From a virus, in the IMG/VR virus record IMGVR_UViG_3300050821_003315: a stretch of 64,000 bases of DNA; one strand, written 5' to 3'. The translations under genes and the position numbers were made by a program. The notes below the pieces were generated by a model. It did no database searches, had not been told where the DNA came from, and worked only from the letters and a program-made list of their open reading frames with translations. Below are positions 49,701 to 64,000 of this stretch, in pieces (within the stretch, counting starts at the first letter, position 1; each line of letters opens with the position of its first letter).

Positions 49701-52235
49701 GTGGTGAATGGCCAGGTACAGCAGTCCTGCACCTACCGCAAGACCAGCCATTACGCCTAGGCCAATAGGTCCAAGTCCTGTGAAGGACGAGACCATGCCT
49801 AGTAGGCCCTTTCCTGCGCCCTTTGCCATACTGCCCAGGCGAGAAGTAACAGACGAACCTTCGTCTAGGGCCTTCCAAGCACCCTTAGTCTTGGTACCCA
49901 TGTTACTGAAGTTACCGATAAGGGAACCCAGGCCACCGCCCAGCTTCTGGAACTTACCCCGAGTATCTTCAGATGCCGCAGCCGCATCCTTAAGGCCCGC
50001 TTCGCCTTCCTTGGTGCGGTCGCTTAGGTTAGTCATGCTGGCGGAAAGGTTAGTCGCCTCCTCTGCGCCATTCTTCAGCTTTGCGCCCGCAGCGTTAGTA
50101 GCTGAAGCTAGGTTGTTGGTGGCCTCCGCAGCCTCACGCTCAGAATCAGCGAAGTCAGCTACCTTAGAACGAGCACTAGCAAATCCCTGAAGGAATCCTC
50201 CAAGTAGGCTCCGACCTACAGTTGCCAGCAACGTGACCAAGATACCCAGGTAAACTACCGCGCCGTGAAGCTTAAGGCCAAATCCAACAATTGCCTGGAA
50301 TAGCGGTGAACCTGTGATGTCTTCAACAATCTTAAGGAATGCTGTTCCAAGACCCAGCAGGATTTCAGCGTAGTGAGGCACTACCTTACCCAGGTTACCC
50401 AAGATTCCCAGGAAGTTACCGATAGCCGTGCCCAGCTCGTAGAACATCTTCGCGCCACCGGACAAGAAGTTGCCGAAGCCGTTCTTAAGCGCCACAGTGG
50501 CACGAGCACCGAGCTTGTCTACAAGCGGATTCATCTGCTTCAGGAAGCCAACGAATGCCCCGGAGCGAGCGTTGACCACGTTGATTGCGTCACCAAGAAG
50601 CTGCCATACCGCAGGACGAACAGCAGCCTGCATGTTGTCACTAAATAGCTTTGTCTCGCCCTTGAAGTTATTGAGAGACTTGCCTGTAGCAGCAACAGCC
50701 GTTCCCATGTTCTGGAATTGAGTTACAACCGACTTAATGTCAGGAGCTGCGGCTGCACCCCATGCTGCGAATGCGATAGTTGCAGGTACCCACACAGCGA
50801 TTACTTCAAAAATAGCGTCAGCAAGCAAGTGCCAACCGCTAACGAAGCTAAGCAGGTAAGTGTCAAGCTTATTGAACATGCCGCCGAACAAGGTGACGTG
50901 GCCCATGCCCTTCAGGAAGCCACCTACCGCGCCAGTCATCAAGTTAATACTGTTAGTACCATCCCGGCCAGCACCTGCTACGGTGTCTCCGAATCGCCCT
51001 ACTACACCTGTCAGGCCACTCATGTCAGCGAAGACGCTCTTAGTGCCCTGGTCCAGGGTGCCAAATTCGTGGGACGCCTTATTAACGACATTCTCAAGAG
51101 TCGCGAAATTATTTAGCAGGTTGCTAAGGCTAGCGTGCGGAGACAGGTTGGACATGCGCTCCTGAATAGCTAGAACACGCGCCATCAAATCGTCCAGGGC
51201 TACCTTAGCCTCAGAGTCACTAACGTTAGCTCGCAGGTTTAGCAGTAGCTGACGCATTCCTTCAGTCTGCGAGACTGTCTTAACTAGGAAGTTTTCCACG
51301 TCCTGGTCATTAATATCTGCCCGTAGCTTTAGCTTTTCCTGAAGAGCATTAATTAGCGTCTCTTCGCGAGTTAGTCCTTGCAGCAGCGGATTCATATCCA
51401 GCTTGATAACTACAGGCCGCGTCATGTCCTCCATCAGGAGGTCAGCTTCCTTGCGGGCTGCGGCTAGCTTAAGCAAGAACGGAGTTACGTCTCCGTCCAT
51501 AGGCATGTTCTTAAGCTGCTTTTGCAGGGTAGCTACTTGGGCAATAGATGTTGCGAACTTGCGCATCATTGATGCGTCGTCCACGTCCATCGCCATATCC
51601 TTAAGGTCGTCCTTAAGGGTGTTCGCCTCACCAATAGCCTTAGCAATCTGAGCCTGAAGCTTAGTGGCGTCTGCGCCTATGTGCAGGTTACGCAGGTCCT
51701 TGGAAAGGTCCTCGAACATACCACGAGCTTGAGCAAGCTTTGCCATCAGCGGAGCAACATCAGCATCTGCCTTGAGATTCTTAATTTGCTTTTCAAGGCC
51801 AGCGACGAATGAGCCAACCGCTCCCAGCTTCTTGAGAGCATTAGCGTCATCAATGTTAAGCTCAGCGCCGCGCATGATAGCTGCCTTGAGCTTGTCCAGA
51901 TAACCCTGCATCACAGCGACCTGACGGTCAGCCTGAGACATGTCCATATTAAACTTAACGGAGGGACGACCTAGCGCCTTTACGGCAGTTTCAAAGCGTG
52001 CTAGTTCGGCTACGGCTTCGGTCGTAACGAACTGGAGGCGCATTGCAGGATTAGCGGCCTTTACGGTAGCCATAATCTTGGCTACGGCGCTGTCTACTTG
52101 CTTAGTATTAGCGCCAATGTTAAGTTCGGGACGCAATCCTGCCATCTGCGCGCGAATCTTCGCGTCAAGCTGAGACCGGAAAGCGTCTGTAATCGGGACA
52201 ACAGCAACACCGGCTTCACCGAGTATCCGGGTCAC
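43785..52235 (-). CDS. Tape measure protein with tail-lysozyme, NlpC/P60 and SLT domains
   Basis: Ala/Gly-rich helical body; GESAGNP..GYGLIGWT..FERP; YRWGG...DCSSF..GHVG; ESSGNP.AINLWDSNA..G.PS.GLLQ. Confidence 0.93.
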   Translation of the reverse strand: MTRILGEAGVAVVPITDAFRSQLDAKIRAQMAGLRPELNIGANTKQVDSAVAKIMATVKAANPAMRLQFVTTEAVAELARFETAVKALGRPSVKFNMDMSQADRQVAVMQGYLDKLKAAIMRGAELNIDDANALKKLGAVGSFVAGLEKQIKNLKADADVAPLMAKLAQARGMFEDLSKDLRNLHIGADATKLQAQIAKAIGEANTLKDDLKDMAMDVDDASMMRKFATSIAQVATLQKQLKNMPMDGDVTPFLLKLAAARKEADLLMEDMTRPVVIKLDMNPLLQGLTREETLINALQEKLKLRADINDQDVENFLVKTVSQTEGMRQLLLNLRANVSDSEAKVALDDLMARVLAIQERMSNLSPHASLSNLLNNFATLENVVNKASHEFGTLDQGTKSVFADMSGLTGVVGRFGDTVAGAGRDGTNSINLMTGAVGGFLKGMGHVTLFGGMFNKLDTYLLSFVSGWHLLADAIFEVIAVWVPATIAFAAWGAAAAPDIKSVVTQFQNMGTAVAATGKSLNNFKGETKLFSDNMQAAVRPAVWQLLGDAINVVNARSGAFVGFLKQMNPLVDKLGARATVALKNGFGNFLSGGAKMFYELGTAIGNFLGILGNLGKVVPHYAEILLGLGTAFLKIVEDITGSPLFQAIVGFGLKLHGAVVYLGILVTLLATVGRSLLGGFLQGFASARSKVADFADSEREAAEATNNLASATNAAGAKLKNGAEEATNLSASMTNLSDRTKEGEAGLKDAAAASEDTRGKFQKLGGGLGSLIGNFSNMGTKTKGAWKALDEGSSVTSRLGSMAKGAGKGLLGMVSSFTGLGPIGLGVMAGLAVGAGLLYLAIHHVDNETQSWVKTQEDLAQNAPLADYLAAAKNSYNQISDRVNVAKAAIMNYAMTQTAAGRALRGTNVTFQQATNILQFQARYGRAAGESAGLLLQHYQDLKAGLDAMNGQMQAYNSGIAAVTKMTGSQTAAIGLLNAAGITTKQLITDQTAALHGNKGAWQQDMVMIQGTLVGFQAMSPAIGGAASAMNALTLSTSNTLGEVQKVTQAYSQFIQMVTGSAQQFAQFQQGMGTLATSLAPPGASAASGGAAGGAGGNTGTFTFANGKVSASQPITGSGGVIGGVTQAGAASLAAYVQQIQQAETLMNSLMTQAALAGNTPGANLASARAAKDTVAMLGNVPGVRGNPGATSMLGALAQTGGFTGSTTDFQAITKWAGNASNATGDLNKQMNLLTVASSNLNQDVARLSQTMNSQLLTAESNAIMAAENMGPKLENLAKATLAWVKAGSQVGGQGWGQMLKAAQPVAQAFLMQTHNVGMARQSLEAYLEQMGVSQATATKMADALIKNNAATNANAAANRTAALSMAQVAKATQINITSVTASRAAWVHFGESMGMSAQEATKLWGRLKENGLQGLLHQTAGTRTEFEKLARQFGISKTQADALWNKFHDGSLDMLKNKAAGTLGAFMKLAHQFGVTASSAVVLWERAHQQQFDMLSGKSRITVGQLQSLAHQFGVSGTQAQTLWAVMHRQYLDALSGKAGITHSQLGRLADTLGLNRTQANALWSMLRRQYLDTLTNKANVSYSAFIRLAKGFGITNTAAAQMWAQSRQQQFDMLSNKSRVTNSQLQKLAHQFGVNTGAASQLWSMMRQQYLDALTGKTGVSKSAFDAWARSAHISTGEANTLWNMLHQQYFDTLTAKASRNKSQFDALSNAWHVSTVKADALWRTLQQQYLDQITHKATMSHQAFNTLAQKLGYSKTEADAMWNSLKRMSGNYGVHVHTNVDGGGKVGAEVTVSAAIANTMKAAGNLGSSVLKSLGLAQGGLVPSHFAGGGSVPGWGNHDSVPAMLMPGELVIPKNHAAEFATQAKRKGIPGFASGGIVGATTSPVAGSGGLLTTQTGGNVAEMPVEGSQLLTIPAKLSGELAKLGPMVTSELVSSIQAVQSAIMMAGSSGAIPGGVVSGNAMANLNQIGRYLMSQGASAAAAAGIASVVYGESAGNPESVGSGGYGLIGWTGNNIGLPAGYHGPTGNASRDLAVQMAGIVGYGKANGPWGQLMKMTDPVAAGDLWSSAFERPAVHLSDTRPGLATQLYASLRGFKGMGPIAPGAAGVSSAPAAGSSRILSDAERYVGHPYRWGGASNPTTGWDCSSFASWVLGHDLGLALPGGSWSSVTGGGKSHGPTASSFTSLPGAHPVGSNPSQIMPGDVLVWPGHVGFGVGPNKMFSAYGTNSGTIFSNAQAAGNLTIMRYGAGAQFGGGAVMPGPQSNVGAFTFKFGEGGLVGDAGAGGSKTAAAAAAKAKHAPAHKPAPHFKKKPTEAQDINAYNNLLKQVVHYYDEALVLADASTKQATTKAPTAAQKAADIAAANKFTSEADARSTKTAKDRSILNKANKLTAQAHAFSHTAAERKKLLAVANNDAFASTHANIKPAAKKALMHEAALLTAEANRPKYSKNQQEKLLHQAAVDRSQVSYSHTGAQRKHLLAEAAHERAATHTKTGSIAKAQHYLALAEAADKKMAILDHKDNGRLSKLIAPSKLKTLMADAQELSDLGILGDDPLLKTMRAYTGVVSNPKLKTALKTASGSTHSDILAQVAAANAAAGPIKGVNTALGKNVTRWAPDVSKVLAMEGEPQSLLNQVLFQISTESSGNPSAINLWDSNAKAGHPSQGLLQVIPSTFKSFHWPGTSSNIDDPMANIAAAINYAKHKYGDRLMTNGMGLGSGRGYALGGIIPEPVFGIGASGKRYSFGERGPERILPGTTPNGGGAGGPGMTTYQANTMLQLLGQLVTINRQQPQQMAQAQSRGAGHSAMSGFTQLGR
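46930..48080 (-). repeat. About 40-aa (120-bp) tandem repeat inside TMP
   Basis: (F/L)G.....A..LW....QQ(Y/F)(L/F)D.L..K repeated about 10 times; GTCGAACTGCTGCTG recurs 360 bp apart (47391, 47751). Confidence 0.85.
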
Positions 52236-53562: not shown

Positions 53563-53997
53563 TTAGGTACCGGAAACGCCAGATACCGGGTAACGCTGTA
53601 CGATGGACGCGGCATTCCAGGTGGACTTCATGGTCACAGCCGCTGCCACGCCGCCAGTTACGGCGAAGTCAGGCAGGATGGTACCGAAGAAGTACTGACC
53701 AGGGTTAGCGCCCTGAACACCGATGGTGCTCGGGTACAGGTAGAAGTTACGCGGCTGACCGTCCTTCGCAGCAATGTAGGTCTGCGCGGTTGCGGTGTCG
53801 TAGAAGCCGCTGAAGTCACCAGAAGCGTCCGGAAGACCGGATACCCAGATGAGGTTGGAGTCGCCAAGTGCCGTCACATCGACCTTGGCAACAGTGAAGT
53901 TAATTGTCCAGTCGGACACAAATGCCATGGGAGATGCAGCATCGGCGGGGTTTACACCGAGGTACACAATCCCATTTCGGCCGTGAATACGCGACAC
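53563..53997 (-). CDS. Major tail (tube) protein
   Basis: HGRNG.VY, W.I....VDVTALGD.....V.GLPD.SG.FSGFYD; upstream of TAC. Confidence 0.85.
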   Translation of the reverse strand: MSRIHGRNGIVYLGVNPADAASPMAFVSDWTINFTVAKVDVTALGDSNLIWVSGLPDASGDFSGFYDTATAQTYIAAKDGQPRNFYLYPSTIGVQGANPGQYFFGTILPDFAVTGGVAAAVTMKSTWNAASIVQRYPVSGVSGT

Positions 53998-54110
53998 GGG
54001 GTCACCCTCTCGTAACTAGGTACGTTCAGATGGGCCTCGTGAGCATCCGGCGGACACGGCTCCCTCAGATTTAAGGGTAAGGGAAAAACTCTCCTCGCGC
54101 TACCCCAATT

Positions 54111-54272
54111 CTACAAGCGACCCGGCTTAGCTTGACTTTCTTTATCTTGAGTAACCTTAGAAATACCCTCTAGGTAGCTTTCAGCACATTCTTGAGAGCA
54201 AAGGTCCACCTCTTCGTGGACCCCTCGCCAATAAGTGCCGCACTGAGCGCACTCAAGCCAGTCCTTGTGCAT
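54111..54272 (-). CDS. 53-aa Zn-binding protein
   Basis: Not in track; CAQC...CSQEC; TAATG-coupled to the GT gene. Confidence 0.55.
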   Translation of the reverse strand: MHKDWLECAQCGTYWRGVHEEVDLCSQECAESYLEGISKVTQDKESQAKPGRL

Positions 54273-55354
54273 TAGAAGAAGCCTAGATTATCCATTTCGT
54301 TCATCAGCCACTGCCCGTGAGCATCAAAATTCCGGTCAGCAATAGCTTCTCGCGCCTGGTTGCCCAACCCTACTCGCCTGTCTTCGTCAGCCAGTAGCCA
54401 GCGGAGCTTTTCTGTGGCGTCATCAGGGGTTGTGAAGGTAGGCAGGAACGGGAAAGTCTCGTCGCTTTCAGCCCTAGGGTCACGCAGGAACGGTAGTCCG
54501 CAAGCGGCCATTTCTACTTCCCTAGGACCCATGGCCCAGCCATCGTAGTTGTTGTGGCTTTCCCCTTCACGACGATAAAGGTTAATTCCTGCACGAGAAC
54601 CCCGGTATACCCGAGCTGTCTCCGCGTTCTCCACACAGTGGTCAGGGTCGTGGCTCAAGAATTTCCTCAAGGGTGACTCAGAATCCATGGTGTCCCAGGC
54701 ACTACCGCCTAGAGCTACATCCATGCCTGTGAAGTCCATGCGCTCCAGAAACTTAATCCTTGAGGGGAATGCGGTTCCCACAAAAGCGAAGTCAGACGGG
54801 TCCTCGTGCGCCTCGCCAGCGGGCTGCGGATAGTGAACAAGAGGGTGGTAGGCGTGAGGAACATAGTAAGCGGGGGCTTCCAGAGTCCGCCACTCGGCCA
54901 AGTTCATGGGGTCATTGACGAGGTTAAGGTCAGCGAATTGTCCTCGGAGATATTGTTCTCCGTCTTGGTAGGGCGACTCCGTGTGAATCAATACTACCTT
55001 GCGGCCTCGTAGGCGCATTAGCTCGAACATGCCAGCCGTCGTGTAAAAAGCTGACACGAATATCATGACATCAGGCATGAAGGTCCACACCGCGTGAGAA
55101 AGACCCTGCATGGTTAGCAGCATTGCCTGCTCGTTGTCCAGCGCTGTCTTCACTCTAAACTGGTCACAAGTAGGACACGGCCTCTGGTAGTCCCAATCAC
55201 GAAGCTGAGCCTGCGCATAGAACGACAAGCGGTCATTAGTGTTGTAAGTCGCTACGACCGCCCCTTGACGTTCTAGGCCATACTTCCAGCCATTGAAAAC
55301 GTCAGCTACGGAAAAGTCTGGCCCAGGATGAACCAGTAGAATACGCGGTGCCAC
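54272..55354 (-). CDS. GT-B glycosyltransferase (CgeB/YkvP-like)
   Basis: TESPY, DFAFVGT.F.SR, Y.GSR.GIN, R..E.AACG, W.L.....R...G..AR. Confidence 0.85.
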   Translation of the reverse strand: MAPRILLVHPGPDFSVADVFNGWKYGLERQGAVVATYNTNDRLSFYAQAQLRDWDYQRPCPTCDQFRVKTALDNEQAMLLTMQGLSHAVWTFMPDVMIFVSAFYTTAGMFELMRLRGRKVVLIHTESPYQDGEQYLRGQFADLNLVNDPMNLAEWRTLEAPAYYVPHAYHPLVHYPQPAGEAHEDPSDFAFVGTAFPSRIKFLERMDFTGMDVALGGSAWDTMDSESPLRKFLSHDPDHCVENAETARVYRGSRAGINLYRREGESHNNYDGWAMGPREVEMAACGLPFLRDPRAESDETFPFLPTFTTPDDATEKLRWLLADEDRRVGLGNQAREAIADRNFDAHGQWLMNEMDNLGFF

Positions 55355-55370
55355 TATCCGCTACCTCTCT

Positions 55371-55829
55371 TTACGCCATTATCTGAACTTCAAGGCGAGC
55401 ACCGAAGTACTCCACACCACCGTAGGGAAGCCTACCATAATGCCCGACTTGAATAGGCACAGTGCTCATAACTATGCCGCCTAGCGTGGGGTCCATCTGA
55501 ATGGCCATAGGTACGGAAATCTGGTCAGCCGCAGTACCTAGGTCAAGAAAAGCGTCCAGTTGCTGCTGCTCGCGGTCAGCCGTTGAGCTGTCTGACACCA
55601 GAATTAGTACGCAAAGATTAACACAAACGCCAAATTGCATTTGCCCAAGGTCGTTGAAGGTGTCAGCAAAGGTATCGCCGTACTTGATGTAGGGACTGCC
55701 AGGCAGAATTAGTGCTACAGGCCCTACTCCCTGGTCCAGTGGTTCAGCTTGCGCTCGTAGCTGCGGGTTTACGCAGTACGTCTGAATCTGGTTAGCTAGC
55801 GCTTGGCGGATTTGAGTCAGTGTTGCCAC
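55371..55829 (-). CDS. Tail terminator-like protein
   Basis: L.QIR.ALA, SV..AI..DPTLGG.V, YFGA.L.V. Confidence 0.7.
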   Translation of the reverse strand: MATLTQIRQALANQIQTYCVNPQLRAQAEPLDQGVGPVALILPGSPYIKYGDTFADTFNDLGQMQFGVCVNLCVLILVSDSSTADREQQQLDAFLDLGTAADQISVPMAIQMDPTLGGIVMSTVPIQVGHYGRLPYGGVEYFGARLEVQIMA

Positions 55830-56355
55830 GTTGTATCTCCTCTCCAAGTACTGCTGTCATAGGTGCGGGTGGCGCAGTGGCTATAGCTGATTTAACGTTA
55901 ATGGCGCGCAAGATAGCGTGAACATCACTTTGCAGGTCTTCAAGCAAAGCCGTGGCTTCTTTAATCTGCGCTGTCATATCGTTGTTCTCAGTAAGAAGCT
56001 CGTCCATCTTAGAAGTTTCCGTGTAATGCGCGATAGATTGTTCTGCGGCTACACGGTCAGCTCTCTTAGCTGCGATAAGGATTAGTGCTCCTTGCAGGCC
56101 AGCCATCATGGATAGTGACAAGTTCAGTAGGATGTAAGGGTAGTGGTCAAATCCGCCATGAAGCACGACGGTGTTCAACAGCATCCATATTGCCATGAAC
56201 CCTAGGAAACTGCCAACGAAAGCCCAGGAGCCAAAGGCGTTACGCATAATGTCAGCAGCGCGTTCACCGAAGGTTAGCTGGTTGTCAGTGCGCACATGAG
56301 GGTGCATTCTCCACAGCCCCCGTCCGGTGTAAATACCTTTACCATCGCTACTCAT
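55792..56355 (-). CDS. DUF1003-like membrane protein
   Basis: LTFGERAAD...FGSW.F, FD.YPYILLNL.LS..A.LQ..LIL. Confidence 0.85.
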   Translation of the reverse strand: MSSDGKGIYTGRGLWRMHPHVRTDNQLTFGERAADIMRNAFGSWAFVGSFLGFMAIWMLLNTVVLHGGFDHYPYILLNLSLSMMAGLQGALILIAAKRADRVAAEQSIAHYTETSKMDELLTENNDMTAQIKEATALLEDLQSDVHAILRAINVKSAIATAPPAPMTAVLGEEIQRGNTDSNPPSAS

Positions 56356-56581
56356 ACTCTGCCTCGTCAGTACCATTCACCATGATGGCCAGGAACCACG
56401 ACTTAACCATGTCGTAAGCTCGGTGCTCCGGAAAACCAGCATCCTGCAACTTGTGATAAAACGTGGCCAGGGCAACGCACGTGGAGTCCTGAGGGTCCAT
56501 CTCACCCATAATGCCCGCCATCAGGTTCTCGGCAATCTGGTTGACTTCCTCAGGGCTTAGCTCGTTGTCGTCATCTGCCAT
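56348..56581 (-). CDS. Hypothetical protein
   Basis: L..AGF....A motif; coupled ORF. Confidence 0.6.
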   Translation of the reverse strand: MADDDNELSPEEVNQIAENLMAGIMGEMDPQDSTCVALATFYHKLQDAGFPEHRAYDMVKSWFLAIMVNGTDEAEYE

Positions 56582-57456
56582 TTCAATGCCCAAGCTTCCT
56601 CTACGTGGTCAGGTACAGGGTAAGATTCACCCCAGGAAGCCATCTTACCATCAGGTAGCAATAGCGCTACATGGTCGCCGTTGTCGGTAGGAAACGAGAT
56701 AAGCAGTGCTCCTTCAAGGGGTTCGCCTATTTCCAGCTGTGTATGAGTCTCAAGCTTAACGTTATCCCAAAGCTCGCCGGACGTAGCGGCTTCCAGAGTT
56801 TGCTCAACGTCTTCCCCGCCACCCGCAGCGTGAAGCATCCACACTTGTTCATCCGTTAGGCGCAATCCTGTACTAATCCACAGGTGGTTAGCTATGGCGA
56901 CCGCTATACAGCAGTCATACTTTTCGTCATTGCCTGCGGTAATCCACGGGCCTTCGGACTTCTTGACGCCCACGGCAGTCTTAGGGCTTGACGGCACTGC
57001 GGCTGCTGCGTTAGCTCCTGCCGCTATCTGAGCCGCAGACCTAGCTTTTGTGCGTGCATAGAACGCAGCACTCCCTGTCTGCCGCTGCATGCTCTTAGAC
57101 AACCCCCCACGCTTTCCCTGAGCAGCACTGGCATTAATAGCCATAGAACGTACTGCGGCTTTATTAGCCGCTGCTCTTTCAGCGCTAGCAAATTGGGCAG
57201 CGCTTAGACGACCGCCTACTACTTGAGTTCCGGCATTACCTTGAACAGATGCAGGCTGAGGTGCTGTGCCTGGCGGAAAAGGAGCTACCTTACCGACTTG
57301 TTGCCCTAGCTGTTGCAAGAACTTACGATTGGCAGCCTGGTTGTAAGCTTTCATTTGGGACGTGCTGTAGGCAGGTAGCGCATTAGGCGCTTTTTGCGCA
57401 GCAGTCTTCTTAGGCGCAACGAAAGGAGTCTTGGATACTCCTGCTTTAGCTGCCAC
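56557..57456 (-). CDS. Lys/Ala-rich N-terminus plus papain-like C-terminal domain
   Basis: GND..YDCC.A.AIANH, DHVAL, ASWG, VEEAW parallel the motifs of 11389..12165. Confidence 0.55.
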   Translation of the reverse strand: MAAKAGVSKTPFVAPKKTAAQKAPNALPAYSTSQMKAYNQAANRKFLQQLGQQVGKVAPFPPGTAPQPASVQGNAGTQVVGGRLSAAQFASAERAAANKAAVRSMAINASAAQGKRGGLSKSMQRQTGSAAFYARTKARSAAQIAAGANAAAAVPSSPKTAVGVKKSEGPWITAGNDEKYDCCIAVAIANHLWISTGLRLTDEQVWMLHAAGGGEDVEQTLEAATSGELWDNVKLETHTQLEIGEPLEGALLISFPTDNGDHVALLLPDGKMASWGESYPVPDHVEEAWALKWQMTTTS

Positions 57457-57710
57457 TAGTCCTCCAAGTGCACGGTTTCGGGTCCCGAACTGGCAAAGCC
57501 GAACGGCATACGAGCTGGTAGCTCATTAACTCCTGCGTGCTCAAAGGGAGGGTAGGCCCGTTCTGCACTAGCGTGAGGCACTGAATGCGGGTCATGAGCC
57601 AAATGCTCTACCTCTTCGCCTTCCTCAAGCTCAACCTCCTCGTCTTCTACCTTTCGGTACGCGGAAGCCATCTCAAAACGCCGACCAAACATCTCAAGGA
57701 CGATATGCAT
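57456..57710 (-). CDS. Hypothetical protein
   Basis: Leaderless TAGGAT-N6-ATG. Confidence 0.6.
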   Translation of the reverse strand: MHIVLEMFGRRFEMASAYRKVEDEEVELEEGEEVEHLAHDPHSVPHASAERAYPPFEHAGVNELPARMPFGFASSGPETVHLED

Positions 57711-57719
57711 GGCCTAATC

Positions 57720-58724
57720 CTACATCCCAACCTTGCGATTACTTCGGATATACGGTCGCAAAAGTTCCACAATCCAAGAGTTAGAACCAGCCTTGGCTAT
57801 GCCCAGGTCAGAGACGCCTAGGACACCAAAGGTGGCATCCTTTAGCTTGAAGTATTCAGCCGATAGCATAAGGCACGCCTGAGAAATAGCTGGCGGAATG
57901 ACCGGCCATCCCCACACGCCTGTTACTTTAACTCGGTCCAGATGCGTGAAAGGCCAAATGAACGGGAAGAACTGACCGCCGGCGGGAGCACCCTGACTTC
58001 CAATCAACACCTGCACCTGGCGATAAGGACGTGGTACACCGAGATAGTTTGAGTTGTACAACTCAAAGCCACGACGTAGCTGGTAGTTAACGTTCTGTGT
58101 CCAAGAAGTCTCAAACACTCCATCGCCATCGTAGTCTAGCGCAAGAGCACTGACACTTACTATGGGGTCAATGTCTAGCAACCAGATATCACTAGGTGCG
58201 AATGTGCGACTTTCCGTAATCTGGTAGAAGTGCTGAGCGCAGTACTCGTTAATCCAGTTTGTCGCTGCTTGGATAGCTGTGGTCATCTCATAGTCGCTAG
58301 CAGTATCAGTTATGCTGAGGCGCGACTTTAGCTCGTCTAGGCCACAATACCACTGGACCTGAGAAGTACCTGATTCACTGCTGTAAGGCAGGATTCGGAA
58401 GGTATCTGCTTGTACTGTCGTGCCGCCTGGGCCTCCTGTACTTCCCACACCAATCCACATGGCGGACCAAAGGCCCGTAGGCACAGGATTAGGTGAGTAC
58501 AGCACTGAGGCTTGCAAGTTGAACTGGTACTGGCCTGTGGCCACTTTACTAATGATGTTGCGGCCTGAGCCACCTGTGTACGTGTAGCTGGTTTGCAGTC
58601 CTTGAGGGTCTGTCGTAACGAGCTGAATAGTTCCAGGGTCTACAGGACTACCACTAGGGTCAGTAAAAGTTATGGTGATAGGCACCACTGACCCGGACAG
58701 GTCATAGTAAACCGCACTTGTCAC
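57720..58724 (-). CDS. Head-to-tail adaptor with extra N-terminal Ig-like domain
   Basis: YC.LDELK.RL, AI.AA..WI..YC...F, V.VTG.WGW..IP.AI.QA; GGAGG SD. Confidence 0.8.
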   Translation of the reverse strand: MTSAVYYDLSGSVVPITITFTDPSGSPVDPGTIQLVTTDPQGLQTSYTYTGGSGRNIISKVATGQYQFNLQASVLYSPNPVPTGLWSAMWIGVGSTGGPGGTTVQADTFRILPYSSESGTSQVQWYCGLDELKSRLSITDTASDYEMTTAIQAATNWINEYCAQHFYQITESRTFAPSDIWLLDIDPIVSVSALALDYDGDGVFETSWTQNVNYQLRRGFELYNSNYLGVPRPYRQVQVLIGSQGAPAGGQFFPFIWPFTHLDRVKVTGVWGWPVIPPAISQACLMLSAEYFKLKDATFGVLGVSDLGIAKAGSNSWIVELLRPYIRSNRKVGM

Positions 58725-58763
58725 GATGCCTCCTCGTAGCTTTTCTCCTACTCAGAATACACC

Positions 58764-58800
58764 AAAAGCCCTCGGCCCAGGAGAATCCTGAGCGGAGGGC
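58764..58800 (-). terminator. Intrinsic terminator
   Basis: GCCCTC..CTCAGGA-TTC-TCCTGGG..GAGGGC-TTTT. Confidence 0.7.
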
Positions 58801-58898
58801 CTATGGCGAGATTTAAAGACCACCTCCTAGGGCGCAGTGATTACTTTTCACAGCTACCACCTCCTCGCCTAGGAGCTTTCCTTGATGACTTCAGCTTA

Positions 58899-59090
58899 TC
58901 AGTGCACTCGCCACATCATTACACATCGGCGCAAAATTGCATCTGTTACGTATAGTCCTAGCGGATGCTGCGTTCTGCCAAGAGCTTCAGAGACTTGACG
59001 CCTGAAATCCGGGAAGCTTTCGTGCTCAATGATATCCAGCCAGCAACGTAGCTCTTCCTGAGACAGCGGCACCCGCTCTGAAGGACTCAT
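58899..59090 (-). CDS. Hypothetical protein
   Basis: Short operon ORF. Confidence 0.45.
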   Translation of the reverse strand: MSPSERVPLSQEELRCWLDIIEHESFPDFRRQVSEALGRTQHPLGLYVTDAILRRCVMMWRVH

Positions 59091-59092
59091 GC

Positions 59093-59629
59093 TTAGCCTA
59101 CTTTCGCCAGCTCAAGGTCACGCTTCCACAACGACCCTGGAGTCACAAAGCCCGTCCAGCGCTTGTCTGTGAACACCTCCACGCCCAGCTTAAGGTAGAA
59201 GTCATCAGCAATTTGAGAGCAAATCATATGCCCTGTGTCTGCGATGAAGTGCTCCAAGCCCGGAATCGGCAGGTGCAACCTGTGAGCAACAAGCGCGTCA
59301 TAGTCCAGAAAGGAGTACTTAATGCCCTTGTACGTAGCTCCCAGTTTTACGACTGTATCAGTCCAGCCAGGAGTTGCTGGCTTGCTTCCCAGTAGGTCAT
59401 AAATGTGCTCACACCAGTAGACGCTGGCGGGCCTGTAGTGCAGTGGCACAATCCTGGCACCGCCTGGTTCAGCTTCTAGTATCTGACCATTACCTAGGGA
59501 CACAAAGGCATGCTCAAATAGGCTGAAGCCGTCTCCGTTAAGAAACTGGCCTAGGCGTATGCCTGCACCAACACTTCCAGAGATTTGCGTCAACCCGATG
59601 AGTCCGGGAGCCGGGAAAATGTCGTTCAT
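59093..59629 (-). CDS. Permuted NlpC/P60 (YiiX/YaeF-like) hydrolase
   Basis: PG.IGL, EHAFV, EAEPGG, YSFLDY, ICSQ (His before Cys), VTPG.L. Confidence 0.75.
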   Translation of the reverse strand: MNDIFPAPGLIGLTQISGSVGAGIRLGQFLNGDGFSLFEHAFVSLGNGQILEAEPGGARIVPLHYRPASVYWCEHIYDLLGSKPATPGWTDTVVKLGATYKGIKYSFLDYDALVAHRLHLPIPGLEHFIADTGHMICSQIADDFYLKLGVEVFTDKRWTGFVTPGSLWKRDLELAKVG

Positions 59630-59654
59630 GCACTCATTGTAAGCGCTTAATCAG

Positions 59655-60185
59655 CTAGTGGATAATCACGCCTGTGATAATGCTAGCCATAGCTACCAGG
59701 AAGGAGATAATTGTCGCTATGAGTAGAAGATTCTCCCGCCTAGTACGGCCTGTTACAGCGTTTGCGACATTACCGCCTTGAGTTACGTCCAGGCGGCTGC
59801 TAAGCCGGAGTTCGAGGTCAGCTATGTGCTTAGAAGTCTCTTCTACTTTCTGCACAAGATATTTTTGCGCTTCATCGTACTCACCACGAGGCAAGAAAGT
59901 TCGTGCTTGGTCACTAAGCTGACCACGGAACTCATTAACAGACTCAAATCGCTTTTCCGCTGCTGTTTCTGCCTTGGTAGTGGCTTGTTTTGATGCCTCA
60001 AGAGCAGCACTAACTGCTTTTTCGGCAGCCTCAAAGGCAGTACTCATAGCCTCTTGATTAGATGCCTGACGTTCATCCAGCAAACGCATCATGTCAGCAC
60101 GGGCTTGAGCATTAAACCTGTCAGCAGCGTCTATCTTTTCGGCAAGTCGGGCAAGCTCTATTGCGCAGTTATAGTTATCGCACAC
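59655..60185 (-). CDS. Coiled-coil protein with C-terminal TM anchor
   Basis: KAE.A.EKRFESVNEFRGQL.DQ...F.PR.E; terminal hydrophobic helix. Confidence 0.7.
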   Translation of the reverse strand: MCDNYNCAIELARLAEKIDAADRFNAQARADMMRLLDERQASNQEAMSTAFEAAEKAVSAALEASKQATTKAETAAEKRFESVNEFRGQLSDQARTFLPRGEYDEAQKYLVQKVEETSKHIADLELRLSSRLDVTQGGNVANAVTGRTRRENLLLIATIISFLVAMASIITGVIIH

Positions 60186-60209
60186 ACGTCTAGAGTACGC
60201 GAAATAGCT

Positions 60210-60734
60210 TTACTTAACAGTGTACAAAACAGATGACCCTACAGTACGTAGTCCTTCAGGGAACAGCGCATCTAGAGCCGGCTTAACATCAGGACAGCAG
60301 CAGTATTCGTGGTAATCGTGGAACATGATAGTTCCACCCGGCTTCAGCAACGGTAGTGAATTGCGAGCGTCTGCGGTAACTCCGTCAAAAGCATGCTCAC
60401 CGTCAATGAATATGAAATCGAACTTGTCAGTAAGCTGCGGTAGCATAACGGTAGAGTCACCCTCCACCACGGTAACCTTATCCCTTATACCTTGCTCAAT
60501 CACATTATTATCCCACTGAGGGTAGCTGCATATGGGCGGGAATAGGTCTACTGATGTTACGTGAGCGGCTGTGCTAGCAAGAACTGAAGTAGAGAAACCG
60601 TAAGCTACTCCTACTTCCATAACGTTCTTGCCCGTAGCTTGCGTACGGAGTTCTTCCGCTTCTTCGTCCAGCAGGGACGTAAAAATTCCACGATTACCAG
60701 GAATCGGGCTGATGTCACGCCATGGCAGGTGCAT
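60210..60734 (-). CDS. Class I SAM-dependent methyltransferase (Methyltransf_24-like)
   Basis: VMEVGVAYGFST, FDFIFIDGEH, LKPGG.I.FHDY. Confidence 0.9.
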   Translation of the reverse strand: MHLPWRDISPIPGNRGIFTSLLDEEAEELRTQATGKNVMEVGVAYGFSTSVLASTAAHVTSVDLFPPICSYPQWDNNVIEQGIRDKVTVVEGDSTVMLPQLTDKFDFIFIDGEHAFDGVTADARNSLPLLKPGGTIMFHDYHEYCCCPDVKPALDALFPEGLRTVGSSVLYTVK

Positions 60735-60735
60735 T

Positions 60736-61458
60736 TTAGATATCTCCAGCTAGTTTGGCCCAGTAACGTTCGCCTGACAAGTGTTCTGCCCAGAACCTTC
60801 GCCAGTCGGTAGTGCGTAGACAGTTCCCTCCAGAGTTAGCGACCGCATAACCGGTAGCTGCTTCTATTGGTGAATTGCCGCTATTTAGGAGAGGAAAACT
60901 TACGCGCTGAAACAGGTCAGTAGTGCAGAAGAATGCTCCTCCGTACTTAAGAGTAGCATTGTAGTACTCACCAGGCATATCTTCTTGATAGTTGTCCCAC
61001 CAAGGTGCGCCGCTGCCTATCGCGTAAGCTATGCCGTTAACTATAACATTAGGTCCACTAGTGCTGCCCCCACCACTTGCCGATATCTTGTCTAGTCGAT
61101 GCGGCACTAGATAATTACTGCCCCGTACAACGCTTAGAACACCTGAGTCGTAGTTAAGTAGCTGGTCAGCTTCGGTGACGTAAACGTGCGTGTATTCCGT
61201 GTCCAACCCCAGTTTTTGTGCTTCGGTATTTACTAGGGCCGGGATGTGCCAAGGGTTTTCGTAGTGCACGCGGATTATACTGACACTCAGAGCTTCTACG
61301 TCCGCTGCGTCTTCTTCACGACCTACTCCCACGTACAGTTCGTCAACAAAGTCCAGAGCATTTTCTACTGTACGACGCAAGTACTCAATGCGTTCAGGGG
61401 AATTTGTACACTCGGGGCTAGAACCTGCGTAGTAAGGGATTATCCCTACAACTTTCAC
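60736..61458 (-). CDS. GT-A-fold glycosyltransferase-like protein
   Basis: VVGIIPYY, R..YL..TV, YVTEADQ (DxD-like), GGAF, EHL; cluster context. Confidence 0.6.
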   Translation of the reverse strand: MKVVGIIPYYAGSSPECTNSPERIEYLRRTVENALDFVDELYVGVGREEDAADVEALSVSIIRVHYENPWHIPALVNTEAQKLGLDTEYTHVYVTEADQLLNYDSGVLSVVRGSNYLVPHRLDKISASGGGSTSGPNVIVNGIAYAIGSGAPWWDNYQEDMPGEYYNATLKYGGAFFCTTDLFQRVSFPLLNSGNSPIEAATGYAVANSGGNCLRTTDWRRFWAEHLSGERYWAKLAGDI

Positions 61459-62105
61459 TCAAGAATCCTCTGACGCGGACTGTCTGGGTTCGGAGCATCC
61501 CTGTACGCCTGGCAAGTAACGTGAGGGTAATGCTTCCAGGTAATACCGTGCGCCATCCAGCGCTGTGCAATATCCCAATCAATAGTGTCCTGTCCTTCAT
61601 CTCGCCAATTTACTCGCTCCAGAATTGCTTTGCGGTGAGCTATAGCTGAAGTTGAGATGCCGGAGTATGTAGGTGGGTCTGTGCCTGAGATGTTAGGGTT
61701 GCCTGGGTCGTAAATCATAATTCGCGAATAGGAGAAGCCTGCTTGTGGGTCTTGCTTGAGCATAGCCATGAGAGCTGACAGGTGATTAGGCAAGTACTCA
61801 TCGTCGTCGTCCAAGTACGCTACGAAATCTCCTTTAGCTCGCCGTATTCCTTCTAGTCTTGCAAAGTGACCCCAACGTGAATTGTCATGATGAGCCGGAA
61901 GTTCTGCGTACTCCAACTCGTAGTCTGAATACAGGAAAGCTTTACTGCTTGCCTTGAATAGGCTTCGCAATTCGGGGTTAGGACCGTCCGCTACGACAAC
62001 ATGCTGAATAGGGCGGTACTCCTGCAAAGCTACGGACAATACTGCCCGTAGCACAGATGCGTCTCTATGCCAGGTAGGCGTAACTACCGTGATGAGGTCA
62101 GCCAT
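61455..62105 (-). CDS. Family 2 glycosyltransferase
   Basis: ITVVTPT, RA..SV..Q, VVVADG, GI..AKGDFVAYLDDDD...P.HL, DWD. Confidence 0.92.
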   Translation of the reverse strand: MADLITVVTPTWHRDASVLRAVLSVALQEYRPIQHVVVADGPNPELRSLFKASSKAFLYSDYELEYAELPAHHDNSRWGHFARLEGIRRAKGDFVAYLDDDDEYLPNHLSALMAMLKQDPQAGFSYSRIMIYDPGNPNISGTDPPTYSGISTSAIAHRKAILERVNWRDEGQDTIDWDIAQRWMAHGITWKHYPHVTCQAYRDAPNPDSPRQRILE

Positions 62106-62929
62106 TCCTGGTACCACTCAATAGTTTCCGTCGCCTTATACGGCCATAGGTTGTTGCACACAGGCTTAGTGGCTACTACTACAGCATCCCTCGGCTCCCC
62201 ACTGCGTCCCGCCACCGTGGTGATAGTTGATGAGGATGTAGGAATCTTCGACAGAATGTCTTGCGCGACCTGGTCTACGGAAATAGGCACTCCGTTACCT
62301 GCTTCTACCACAGTGCCGTAAGGTCCCGCCAGAGCATCTACAAGCGCTACGGCCACGTCATCCACGTAAACGGTATCAATTAGCTGCTCACCGGTCCCGC
62401 ACAGCTCCAGCGGCATGTTAGTTAGTGCCCGCGTCGCGAAGGTGGGGAAGAACTTGTGAACGCTGGCAGTGCCGTGTGGCGGCCCTACCGGCTGACCTGG
62501 CCCATACACGTGATACGCACGCAGGATAGTTACTTCGTGACCAAGCCACTGTGCTCGGGCAAGACCTAGGTCTTCCGCGCAAGCCTTGGTTAGCGCGTAT
62601 GGATTAGGCTGGCCTTTATGCCCGGTCCCTACCTGAACTACCGGAATGCCGACTTCAGAAGCGACATCATAAACGTTGATGGCACCGATGATGTTAACTT
62701 CCGCCGCCTTGGCTTCATGGCCGAATAGTTCAGGGGTGCCTAGCATACCAGCCAGGTTGATGATGCCTTGAACGTCGGTCAATCGCACGATTTCCCGTAG
62801 AGCACTGACATCACGGATGTCAGATGAAGGAAGGTCATACGGGATTGCGGTCATGCCGCGCGCAGCTAGCTCATTGCAAGTAGGCTTCCCGATAAAGCCA
62901 CTGCTGCCAGTAACGAGAATGTTAGTCAC
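62084..62929 (-). CDS. NAD-dependent NDP-sugar epimerase/dehydratase (extended SDR)
   Basis: ILVTGSSGFIG, INLAG, N..GA.NV, YALTK, VYGPGQ, D.VYVDDVA. Confidence 0.92.
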   Translation of the reverse strand: MTNILVTGSSGFIGKPTCNELAARGMTAIPYDLPSSDIRDVSALREIVRLTDVQGIINLAGMLGTPELFGHEAKAAEVNIIGAINVYDVASEVGIPVVQVGTGHKGQPNPYALTKACAEDLGLARAQWLGHEVTILRAYHVYGPGQPVGPPHGTASVHKFFPTFATRALTNMPLELCGTGEQLIDTVYVDDVAVALVDALAGPYGTVVEAGNGVPISVDQVAQDILSKIPTSSSTITTVAGRSGEPRDAVVVATKPVCNNLWPYKATETIEWYQEWLTSSR

Positions 62930-62953
62930 GACTGAAATTCTACCTTATCCACG

Positions 62954-63520
62954 TTAGGGCTTAATCCATGCGCCGCGCCTGATTTCCCAGTCATCAATGA
63001 CTATGGGCCAGTTACCCGGTGGGTGAAGTTCCCAGGCACCGCCTGCTAGGATTGCTCCTGACTTCATGTTCTTGTGAATCATCTCTTCGAGCGCACGCTC
63101 TGACGGGATGTCACGGAACGGTCGGTACAGCCAGATGATGTCGTAGTCCTGATACAGGCCAGGAACTTCTAGCGCGTCTTGAACTAGGATGTCACCTGTC
63201 TTCCACTTGCGCGCTTCAGCCGCCATGTCCGCGTCAACTTCAACGCCGTCTGCATCAAGGCCGAACACCTCACTAGCCAGTGCTACTTTAGTGCCGATGC
63301 CACAACCTACGTCAAGAAATGTGAAGCCCTCGGTATAGGTGATGCATTCTGCCAGCATTGCAATGAAGTTAGATGGCTGGAAGGGCATCCACGGCAGGTA
63401 CTTGTCGTCGTGACGGTTACCGTGAGTTAGCCACTCAGGCTCCATCTCTTCTACCTGCTGCATGAGACGCCTAATACGCCATGGTCGTGACTCTTCTAGG
63501 TCACCGTTTACCAGCCGCAT
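62954..63520 (-). CDS. Class I SAM-dependent methyltransferase
   Basis: FLDVGCGIG, GVE.D, DAL, YDIIWLYRPF. Confidence 0.85.
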   Translation of the reverse strand: MRLVNGDLEESRPWRIRRLMQQVEEMEPEWLTHGNRHDDKYLPWMPFQPSNFIAMLAECITYTEGFTFLDVGCGIGTKVALASEVFGLDADGVEVDADMAAEARKWKTGDILVQDALEVPGLYQDYDIIWLYRPFRDIPSERALEEMIHKNMKSGAILAGGAWELHPPGNWPIVIDDWEIRRGAWIKP

Positions 63521-63663
63521 TAGGCACCCAGCTCATCGTCAGGAATATCGCTGTAGGGCAGCGTTGACTGAAGGGCCTCTTCTACGCCAGTGAAGTCTTC
63601 TTCCGACTCTCCACCTCGGATTTCAGGCTTGGGCTTTACCTTGTTATCAGGATTCTCACACAT
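63520..63663 (-). CDS. 47-aa acidic peptide
   Basis: Not in track; leaderless TAGGCT-N7-ATG; TAATG-coupled to the methyltransferase. Confidence 0.55.
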   Translation of the reverse strand: MCENPDNKVKPKPEIRGGESEEDFTGVEEALQSTLPYSDIPDDELGA

Positions 63664-63687
63664 GTTTGCGAGCCTACCGGGACACCG

Positions 63688-64000
63688 CTAATCAAGCAAT
63701 AGCCATTCAGGATTATTTACCGTCCAGCTAATGGTGCGCTTCAGGCTCTCTTCGAAAGGCACAGGCGGTTCCCAGCCTAGTTTTTGTAGCTTTGAAGCGT
63801 CTAGGCCGTAATGCGCATCATGTCCCGGTCTAATTGTGTGGGCGTCCACTAGCCTGTACTTCAGTTCGTACCCCGCATAATCAGCTATCAGTGAAGCCAT
63901 CTTAAGGTTGGAAAGCCGAGTTTCTGTCGCTACGTTATAGCGGTCTGGCCGACCGGAACGAACGTGCCCTAGGCTACCTTGCGCCCAGTGCGGATACATG
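63688..64000 (-). CDS. dTDP-glucose 4,6-dehydratase-like SDR (C-terminal part; 5' end outside the window)
   Basis: YNV, RPGHD.HY.LD.SKL..LGW.P...FEE.L..T..W...NPEW, an RmlB-type C-terminus. Confidence 0.8.
   Translation of the reverse strand, partial: MYPHWAQGSLGHVRSGRPDRYNVATETRLSNLKMASLIADYAGYELKYRLVDAHTIRPGHDAHYGLDASKLQKLGWEPPVPFEESLKRTISWTVNNPEWLLLD

Follow-up and report, generated by a model that had tools for sequence, protein, structure and literature searches.

Why should a tailed phage carry, in the midst of its head and tail genes, a set of genes for making, transferring and methylating sugars? The question is raised by a stretch of 64,000 nucleotides, here called the window, from the IMG/VR virus record IMGVR_UViG_3300050821_003315. 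The window covers C1:35509-99508 on the reverse strand, C1 being the record of 163,509 bp, which is rated complete by CheckV estimate; the genome is called G000 where it has to be told apart from others. The genes in question form an island of sugar enzymes that reaches from the neighbourhood of the capsid gene to the gene of the major tail, or tube, protein. The reading favoured here, with moderate confidence, is that the island serves cytoplasmic O-glycosylation of the phage's own virion proteins, using a self-made 4-acetamido-4,6-dideoxyhexose and methylated sugars.

The closest cultured-phage homologs of the capsid, of the dehydratase and of a GT4-like enzyme of the island were found by homology searches in Pontimonas, Streptomyces and Arthrobacter phages. 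An actinobacterial host would fit this phage origin of the nearest cultured homologs. At the nucleotide level, megablast with the region gave no match among cultured phages.

A sugar island inside the structural operon

All genes of the glycosylation finding lie on the minus strand of the window, and the island begins outside it, past position 64,000, where the same strand continues. The first-pass annotation had placed an RmlB-like dehydratase, a second short-chain dehydrogenase/reductase (SDR), two methyltransferases, a GT2 glycosyltransferase (GT) and a GT-A-like gene upstream of the head-tail adaptor, and all of them are found there (Table 1). Profile and structure comparisons uphold its enzyme assignments, but its gene count was too low, the island being larger. 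Past the end of the window the island adds one more methyltransferase, its third, together with genes for a DegT aminotransferase, a GNAT acetyltransferase, another GT2 and a GT4-like GT-B; the prohead protease and capsid genes have yet another GT2 between them.

Read along one strand, the order is terminase, portal, S78 prohead protease, GT2 (217 amino acids, aa), major capsid protein (ending KGGAS), a connector-like protein, a Gly/Pro/Ser/Thr-rich 179-aa protein, small open reading frames (ORFs), a VIT1-like protein with four transmembrane segments, GT4-like GT-B (351 aa), GT2 (291 aa), GNAT (155 aa), DegT aminotransferase (386 aa), a Methyltransf_24-like enzyme (196 aa, MT196), the dehydratase (354 aa) and then the genes of the window. 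The 18 kb from the capsid to the tail tube gene thus hold about 30 ORFs, thirteen of which encode sugar enzymes, so that the clustering of these enzymes is not a matter of chance; six GT or GT-like genes belong to this block. Base composition gives no mark of a foreign island, the G+C content being 51-52% in the island and 53.9% in the genome.

Table 1. Positions of the features discussed. Plain numbers are window positions; C1 is the record and L numbers denote loci. For the dehydratase the strand given is that in the window.
Feature	Position	Strand	Evidence or remark
Major tail (tube) protein, 144 aa, ends RYPVSGVSGT	53563..53997	-	phrog_10528 9e-5; proposed acceptor
GT-B glycosyltransferase, 360 aa, CgeB/YkvP-like	54272..55354	-	PF13524 5e-14 (52.8 bits; cut-off 25 bits)
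Tail terminator	55371..55847	-	phrog_17840 6e-14
DUF1003 protein, two transmembrane segments	55792-56376	-	just before tail terminator
Head-tail adaptor, 334 aa	57720..58724	-	phrog_442 2e-18, PF05135; downstream edge of main island
u178, papain-like C92/NlpC-P60-like amidase fold	59093..59629	-	TM-score 0.78 to YaeF/YiiX C92 family; not a sugar enzyme
u176, coiled coil and C-terminal membrane anchor	59655..60185	-	transmembrane-like 151-169; no family match
Variable four-gene cassette (SDR281, GT2_220, u240, MT174), 2754 bp	60199..62952	-	absent from G001
MT174, Methyltransf_24-type S-adenosylmethionine (SAM) (O-)methyltransferase, 174 aa	60210..60734	-	PF13578 3e-21, PF01596 7e-6
u240, GT-A-fold protein, 240 aa	60736..61458	-	AlphaFold2 (AF2) model and fold comparison
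GT2 (GT-A) glycosyltransferase, 220 aa	61455..62117	-	PF00535 4e-17; DXD motif YLDDDDEY; no transmembrane segment
SDR281, short extended SDR, 281 aa	62084..62929	-	PF01370 2e-28
Class I SAM methyltransferase, 188 aa	62954..63520	-	PF13649, PF08241; homologs 33-46% identical in relatives' islands
RmlB-like 4,6-dehydratase of nucleoside diphosphate (NDP)-glucose, 354 aa	L001:18758-19822 = C1:34757-35821; window 63688..64000 (last 103 codons)	-
VIT1-like protein, four transmembrane segments	L001:14086-14574 = C1:30085-30573	+	directly before 351-aa GT-B
u179, Gly/Pro/Ser/Thr/Asp-rich low-complexity protein, 179 aa	L001:12577-13116 = C1:28576-29115	+
Hairpin after capsid stop	L001:11982-12003	+	G+C-rich, with T run
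HNH-like ORF of G001	L066:10742-11434		at cassette site
NDP-hexose C-methyltransferases (PF08421/PF08484), B12-binding radical SAM, GT17-like, 450-aa Methyltransf_24 fusions, in relatives	L069:5705-9642 (G003), L074:1903-7911 (G002)
Second glycan-related locus	C1:117806-121567 (L080:5806-9567)	-	outside structural block
NamH-like metallo-β-lactamase and Rieske oxygenase	C1:105833-107278 (L079:6334-7779)	+	domains confirmed
Tape measure and two following ORFs	43785-52235	-

The early-type promoter motif GGAATA-N17-GTT has seven copies elsewhere in the window and none in 43785-64000, which is consistent with the island belonging to the late structural transcription unit. Scans for sigma-70 promoters and for terminators gave no excess over chance, with the sole exception of a hairpin after the capsid gene. 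This hairpin lies directly behind the capsid stop codon, is rich in G+C and is followed by a T run, as fits a partial terminator of the usual kind, which leaves more capsid mRNA than downstream mRNA. Homology in the capsid ORF starts near residue 30-37, and the TTG start listed for it is therefore probably placed too far upstream.

The island could also act away from the virion, by remodelling the host envelope or by making a free or secreted glycan, for superinfection exclusion, as decoys or at lysis. Phage GTs often alter host surface polysaccharides (reviewed in PMC12619734), the operon includes three membrane proteins, and a processive GT2 and a GH5/ricin protein at a separate locus suggest that the phage deals with polysaccharide too. 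Domain searches of the genome, however, found no integrase of either type (PF00589 and PF07508 both absent), which argues against lysogenic conversion, and neither PglC/WecA-type initiators nor a Wzx flippase (PF02397, PF00953 and PF01943 absent). A GtrA/B-like function is likewise missing, no island enzyme has a transmembrane segment, so that the GTs are all soluble, and the island sits within the late structural block with one GT tied to the tail tube gene across loci. In the lack of an integrase, a membrane GT, an initiator and a flippase, action on the host surface is distinctly unlikely. The same lack of transmembrane segments, initiators and flippase fits direct transfer to soluble proteins.

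Predicted enzymes of sugar synthesis and methylation

The dehydratase matches PF16363 (8e-40) and TIGR01181 (1e-60), and its top PDB matches are all dehydratases of deoxythymidine diphosphate (dTDP)-glucose (1e-44). Its motifs are intact, with GAGGFAG (14), STDEVYG (131-137) and YSASK (159) standing for the Rossmann GxxGxxG, the Thr-Asp-Glu set and YxxxK. At 205 bits it is below the TIGR01181 equivalog cut-off of 365 bits, and the carrier may be dTDP or uridine diphosphate (UDP). SDR281 has GSSGFIG and YALTK and lacks the TDE motif of the dehydratases; its PDB matches are weak and mix epimerases with reductases, and it is probably an NDP-4-keto-sugar reductase or epimerase.

The nearest C4 aminotransferases to the DegT protein are TlmJ, ArnB, PseC and WecE, all under their cut-offs, the best match being TlmJ of tallysomycin, whilst the GNAT protein has a weak PseH-like match. 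The genes for GNAT, DegT, a methyltransferase and the dehydratase follow one another in that order. The NCBIfam scores are far under the equivalog cut-offs and the exact substrates of the sugar enzymes are therefore not fixed. No sugar-1-phosphate nucleotidyltransferase (RmlA; PF00483) was found by domain search of the 163.5-kb genome. Taken by its genes, the route looks like an amino/acetamido-deoxy pathway. The epimerised sugars that the first-pass annotation had proposed are not demonstrated.

Three SAM methyltransferases complete the set. MT196 reaches 4e-5 and 24.8 bits against PF13578, just under the gathering cut-off of 26.3 bits, and the island methyltransferases as a group are akin to natural-product O-methyltransferases.

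Glycosyltransferases of the island

All three GT2 enzymes carry DDD motifs. The neighbouring protein u240 has no Pfam match and no PDB sequence match, and an exhaustive search found 77 homologs, none of which (0/77) has a Pfam domain. Its AF2 model (pLDDT 92.4) has a GT-A fold, with Z scores of 12-13.5 to B4GALNT1, ppGalNAc-T2, SpsA, K4CP and RmlT, and residues D98 (within TEADQ, at the DXD position) and H226 are invariant. Because of the GT-A fold, the invariant pair and the lack of Pfam homologs, u240 is probably a metal-dependent glycosyltransferase of an undescribed GT-A-fold family. RmlA-like nucleotidyltransferases are also among its Foldseek matches, and u240 was considered as the missing enzyme of that kind. 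This was set aside, as glycosyltransferases top the fold ranking (by less than one Z unit), GxGTRL is absent and an ExD...H set is invariant.

The GT-B between the tail terminator and tail tube genes had been called CgeB-like in the first-pass annotation, and both PF13524 and the AF2 fold confirm this. The model (pLDDT 93) shows a complete GT-B fold of two Rossmann domains that aligns over its full length to GT4 enzymes, with Z scores of 24-25 for sucrose-phosphate synthase, PimA and BshA. Among viral models, the closest are CgeB/YkvP-like proteins of giant viruses. The motif GPREVEMAACG is invariant, as are P277, R278, E279, E281, A283 and A284.

Among the fold matches are the DNA GT-B enzymes of T4 and HY126 (Z 18-22), and with these comes the question of whether the sugars are placed on the phage DNA, as a hypermodification against restriction like the glucosylated hydroxymethylcytosine of T4 or the DNA glycans of Pyle et al. 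2024. One relative, moreover, has a dCMP/cytidine deaminase in its island. The generic GT4 enzymes nevertheless outscore the DNA GTs, the sugar genes do not lie beside replication or nucleotide genes, and a hydroxymethylase of the thymidylate synthase family (PF00303) is absent from the genome in a search whose controls were positive. For these three reasons a DNA target is very improbable. We also know of no DNA modification with acetamido-dideoxy sugars. The first-pass annotation had held up DNA and the host surface as the targets that would speak against the virion, and both have lost ground through these absences.

A glycosyltransferase gene paired with the tail tube gene

A profile scan of IMG/VR for the GT-B beside the tail tube gene, made with six GT-B sequences, gave 281 loci, and the best 80 of the 281 were fetched for counting pairs. 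A tail tube homolog lies just downstream of the GT-B on the same strand in 72 of the 75 loci with enough flank, a tail terminator lies upstream of it in 63/77 related loci, and the GT-B adjoins a tail tube homolog in 5/5 long relatives. A tblastn search found no homolog of this GT-B in the cultured phages covered, and no cultured model for the pair came to light.

The tail tube protein had been reported to end in YPVSGVSGT, and the translation does read RYPVSGVSGT. When 61 distinct tail tubes, 39-97% identical to that of G000, were compared, 52 of them ended in Thr or Ser and 46 had Gly at position -2. The C-terminal consensus is R-Y-P-x-x-G-[IV]-x-G-[TS], in which G-[ST] is kept whilst positions -3, -6 and -7 vary. 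The capsid proteins of relatives mostly end in G-[AG]-[AST]-[ST], and that of G000 ends in GGAS. A comparison of the relatives found no simple tie between the type of capsid C-terminus and the content of the island. The GT-B and the 144-aa tail tube with its short C-terminal tag are observed as a pair of genes, and they form a compact putative pair of enzyme and substrate.

Relatives and exchange of cassettes

A capsid-based scan of IMG/VR gave 49 loci with 50-98% identity. Homologs of island genes lie downstream of the capsid gene on the same strand in 23 of 23 loci that offer 5 kb or more of flank, though their content differs. Five long relatives, with records of 104-181 kb, keep about 18-24 kb between capsid and tail tube genes, and 5/5 have the 351-aa GT-B, the tail-linked GT-B, a GT2 and methyltransferases. 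The linkage to structural genes, on which the virion proposal had been staked in advance, is thus kept in relatives.

It is the sugar-making genes that vary. Some relatives have the set of dehydratase, DegT and GNAT, and others have TylC3-like NDP-hexose C-methyltransferases, B12-binding radical SAM enzymes, GT17-like and RGP/GT75-like proteins or other SDRs; the relative with the deaminase, G004, also has the RGP/GT75-like protein. Such gene contents point to sugars on phage particles that may be branched-chain or unusual in other ways. The C-methyltransferase and radical SAM genes would also be at home in an antibiotic-type deoxysugar pathway that glycosylates a small molecule or natural product unrelated to the particle, and so would TlmJ as the best DegT match and methyltransferases of natural-product type. 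No aglycone-forming genes are found in the island, however, and since the placement in the structural operon and the coupling of GT and tail tube are conserved, a small-molecule target is scarcely credible.

The variation extends to the closest relative, G001, whose capsid is 98% identical and whose DNA is about 84% identical, yet whose cassettes differ. In a blastn comparison the two genomes align in collinear blocks of 83-85% identity, broken exactly around the 2754-bp stretch that holds the four-gene cassette. At the exact site of the cassette G001 has 1.2 kb with an HNH-like ORF, which may be the trace of endonuclease-driven cassette exchange. G001 also has an additional methyltransferase inserted before the dehydratase. 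Sugar genes that are swapped within a fixed framework resemble the pattern of O-antigen or capsule loci, and a comparable "clade-specific" pattern of sugars is described for giant viruses (PMC10117803).

Comparison with known systems

Virion glycosylation in phages was reportedly first described by Freeman and colleagues in 2023, in a few mycobacteriophages (Cell Host Microbe; Che8, Corndog and Myrna) that are said to use two or three transferases and host sugars. In the passages of PMC12619734 and PMC12363180 that cite Freeman 2023, mycobacteriophage capsid and tail tube subunits are glycosylated at their C-termini, and Che8 gp110 and Corndog gp38 are essential for this. GenBank records give the C-termini as KTGS (gp6) and SDGS (gp11) for Che8 and LVGS (gp41) and KGDS (gp49) for Corndog. 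The Corndog cassette comprises a TylF/Methyltransf_24 protein, an unknown protein, a GT2-like protein and a GT25, and lies between the portal and protease genes; in Che8, gp108 is a fusion of GT2 and methyltransferase.

Like these phages, G000 encodes its own GTs, and the Corndog cassette is also inside the structural operon. PF13578 (Methyltransf_24/TylF) is found in Che8 gp108, Corndog gp35 and MT174 of G000, and capsid and tube end in a small residue followed by Ser or Thr (GS or DS in Che8 and Corndog, AS and GT in G000). The known system and that of G000 thus share layout, methyltransferase family and a hydroxy residue at the C-terminus, whereas the transferases are not homologous. The parallel drawn by the first-pass annotation between the C-terminal Ser/Thr of this phage and those of the mycobacteriophages thus holds, both for the GenBank termini and for the majority of tail tubes. 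Pairwise, the similarity of the island methyltransferases to Corndog gp35 is negligible, the likeness being at family level only.

The differences are considerable. Che8 and Corndog have only GT25 and GT2-like transferases (GT25-like gp110 and gp38, GT2-like gp109 and gp37), whereas G000 has two GT-Bs, three GT2s and a new GT-A family, and no GT25 domain was found among its island proteins. Their cassettes are without sugar synthesis, whereas that of G000 adds a dehydratase, an aminotransferase, a GNAT and an SDR. In the G000 family, moreover, the tail tube gene has a GT as its constant neighbour and the cassettes vary among close relatives, and the system is known from its genes alone.

Among giant viruses, the fibril cluster of Mimivirus (R132, L136-L143, R141) makes 2-O-methyl-Vio4NAc (PMC10117803). 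Both systems have a 4,6-dehydratase, an aminotransferase dependent on pyridoxal phosphate, an N-acetyltransferase, a methyltransferase and several GT2s (PMC10117803), both adjoin the gene of a structural protein that is or may be glycosylated, and in both the sugars differ by clade. This shared enzyme logic makes the earlier description of the pathway as "more complete, giant-virus-like" an apt one. In contrast to Mimivirus, G000 is a tailed phage of a bacterial host, its genes are separate and of bacterial-type origin (the dehydratase is 36-46% identical to other phage dehydratases), and the acceptors, fibrils in the giant virus, are presumably the tube and capsid subunits.

A bacterial example of a dTDP-4-acetamido-4,6-dideoxyhexose pathway is the "Vio island" for the flagellin of Pseudomonas syringae (PMC10117803). 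Bacterial pathways of the Vio4NAc type resemble that of G000 in their RmlB motifs, in having the C4 enzymes nearest to its DegT protein, in an N-acetyltransferase and in methyltransferases, and their target, like the one proposed for G000, is a self-assembling protein filament. Unlike the bacterial RmlA/RmlB and VioA/WecE pathways, G000 is without RmlA and its acetyltransferase is a GNAT.

The nearest cultured homologs are in the Streptomyces phages Zuko and KimJongPhill (genes 4-5) and in the Arthrobacter phages Atuin, Racecar and Mimi, with 41-46% identity for the dehydratase and 26-31% for the GT4-like GT-B. In Zuko the dehydratase and GT genes are adjacent, just before the terminase and structural genes. 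In contrast to G000, there are only two such genes in Zuko and scattered ones in Atuin, without the aminotransferase, GNAT and methyltransferases; the Zuko capsid lacks a terminal Ser/Thr and its gp19 ends in Thr without a preceding Gly.

Proposed pathway and its weighing

From the gene content, motifs, folds, synteny and cassette exchange observed here we infer the following sugar, order of steps, acceptors and benefit. The host would supply NDP-glucose, most likely dTDP-glucose, because the phage is without a PF00483 enzyme. The RmlB-type enzyme would convert this to NDP-4-keto-6-deoxyglucose, its motifs being intact. The DegT protein would then aminate C4 and the GNAT acetylate the amine, giving an NDP-4-acetamido-4,6-dideoxyhexose of the Vio4NAc/Fuc4NAc type, whilst from the same keto intermediate the SDR of the cassette would probably form a 6-deoxyhexose donor by reduction. 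Five or six soluble GTs (the three DXD GT2s, u240 and the two GT-Bs) would assemble a short glycan directly on the subunits, folded or assembling, and the three SAM methyltransferases would cap it with methyl groups. The first sugar is most likely placed by the tail-linked GT-B, on the G-Thr/Ser that ends the exposed C-terminal tail of the tube subunit, and the capsid protein is a second likely acceptor. The island would be expressed together with the head and tail genes, and the benefit may be a variable surface coat, possibly with the shielding suggested by the first-pass annotation.

Seen in this way, the system is a variant of actinophage virion glycosylation that is autonomous, varies by cassette, has a conserved pair of GT-B and tail tube and is convergent with the glycan clusters of giant viruses. 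The genomic support for this is good, and it is as yet unproven.

Several points weigh against it. The GTs of the island have no homology to those of Che8 and Corndog (in blastp comparisons of all island proteins with Che8 gp108-110 and Corndog gp32-38, nothing beyond a local match of 27 residues round the DXD motif turned up), and the parallel is therefore one by analogy. Fold searches cannot separate protein from other acceptors, as the T4 alpha-glucosyltransferase also reaches Z 21.8. For the sugar, dTDP and UDP are alike possible as carriers, and the stereochemistry at C4 is likewise not fixed. Nine of the 61 tail tubes are without a terminal Ser/Thr and still keep the GT-B; these are mostly the most distant ones, eight lacking the extension and ending in KVG and one closer tube ending in SYI. 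A capsid clade ending in FKGG keeps DegT, GT2 and GT1 genes. Since FKGG capsids and KVG tubes keep their GTs, the idea of a C-terminal tag is not universal. Lastly, the three membrane proteins of the operon (VIT1-like, u176 and DUF1003) are not explained by glycosylation of the virion.

The same exceptions count in favour of another component of virion or assembly as the acceptor, such as u179, the tail fibres or internal Ser/Thr sites, rather than the C-termini of capsid and tube. The protein u179 is rich in Ser, Thr, Gly and Pro, and most relatives retain a homolog of it (36-54% identity) next to the capsid gene; it is a possible decoration protein and alternative glycan acceptor. But the GT-B is linked to the tail tube gene and not to u179, the terminal G-[ST] is kept whilst adjacent positions of the tube vary, and the known precedent, as given in the relevant passages of PMC12619734, is C-terminal. 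An acceptor elsewhere in the particle is thus the less likely case, but it is a serious alternative, above all where tube or capsid has no terminal Ser/Thr, and glycosylation at the C-termini of tube and capsid remains the preferred reading.

Other genes of the block and a second glycan locus

Some genes of the block have no evident place among the sugar enzymes. The membrane-anchored u176, found among the long relatives in G001 only, may not be part of the sugar pathway. Homologs of u178 occur in G001 and G005; PHROG labels it "enoyl-CoA hydratase-like", but this was dropped in favour of the C92/NlpC-P60-like fold given by the structure match. The VIT1-like protein and the GT-B that follows it recur as a pair in G001, L035 and L043 at 51-91% identity, and one may speculate that this protein is a metal (Mn/Fe) transporter serving the neighbouring metal-dependent GTs.

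At the second glycan-related locus, unknown ORFs accompany a GT2 of the processive type (474 aa; PF00535/PF13632) and a GH5 cellulase (537 aa) that carries a ricin lectin domain. The locus may make or cut polysaccharide at the host envelope. The NamH-like oxygenase could convert the N-acetyl group of the island amino sugar to N-glycolyl, which is put forward as a lead only. Further along the tail genes, a tape measure ORF of 2816 aa comes before two others, of 1957 and 942 aa; with the usual 0.15 nm per residue, the tape measure implies a tail of about 400 nm.

Significance

A bolder version of the proposal can be stated tentatively, and it is somewhat more likely to fail than to hold in full. 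It sees an uncultured family of soil actinophages, of at least 281 loci, with O-antigen-like swapping loci in the structural operon and lineage "serotypes" of rare sugars (acetamido-dideoxy, possibly N-glycolyl, O- and C-methylated). The GT-B would read a portable tag, G-x-G-Thr/Ser-COOH, the whole would be the first autonomous counterpart in bacterial viruses of the giant-virus machineries, and diversifying selection in soil would be strong. Possible uses of the conserved pair of GT-B and tail tube include the glyco-engineering of phage particles and the making of rare NDP-sugars.

If the island acts as its gene content suggests, tailed phages can be as autonomous in building glycans as giant viruses are, and the trait would be common among soil phages rather than an oddity. 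The variability of the cassettes would then point to an unrecognised selection on phage surfaces, be it through host defence lectins or proteases, grazing, or sticking to polymers of the soil or of cell walls.

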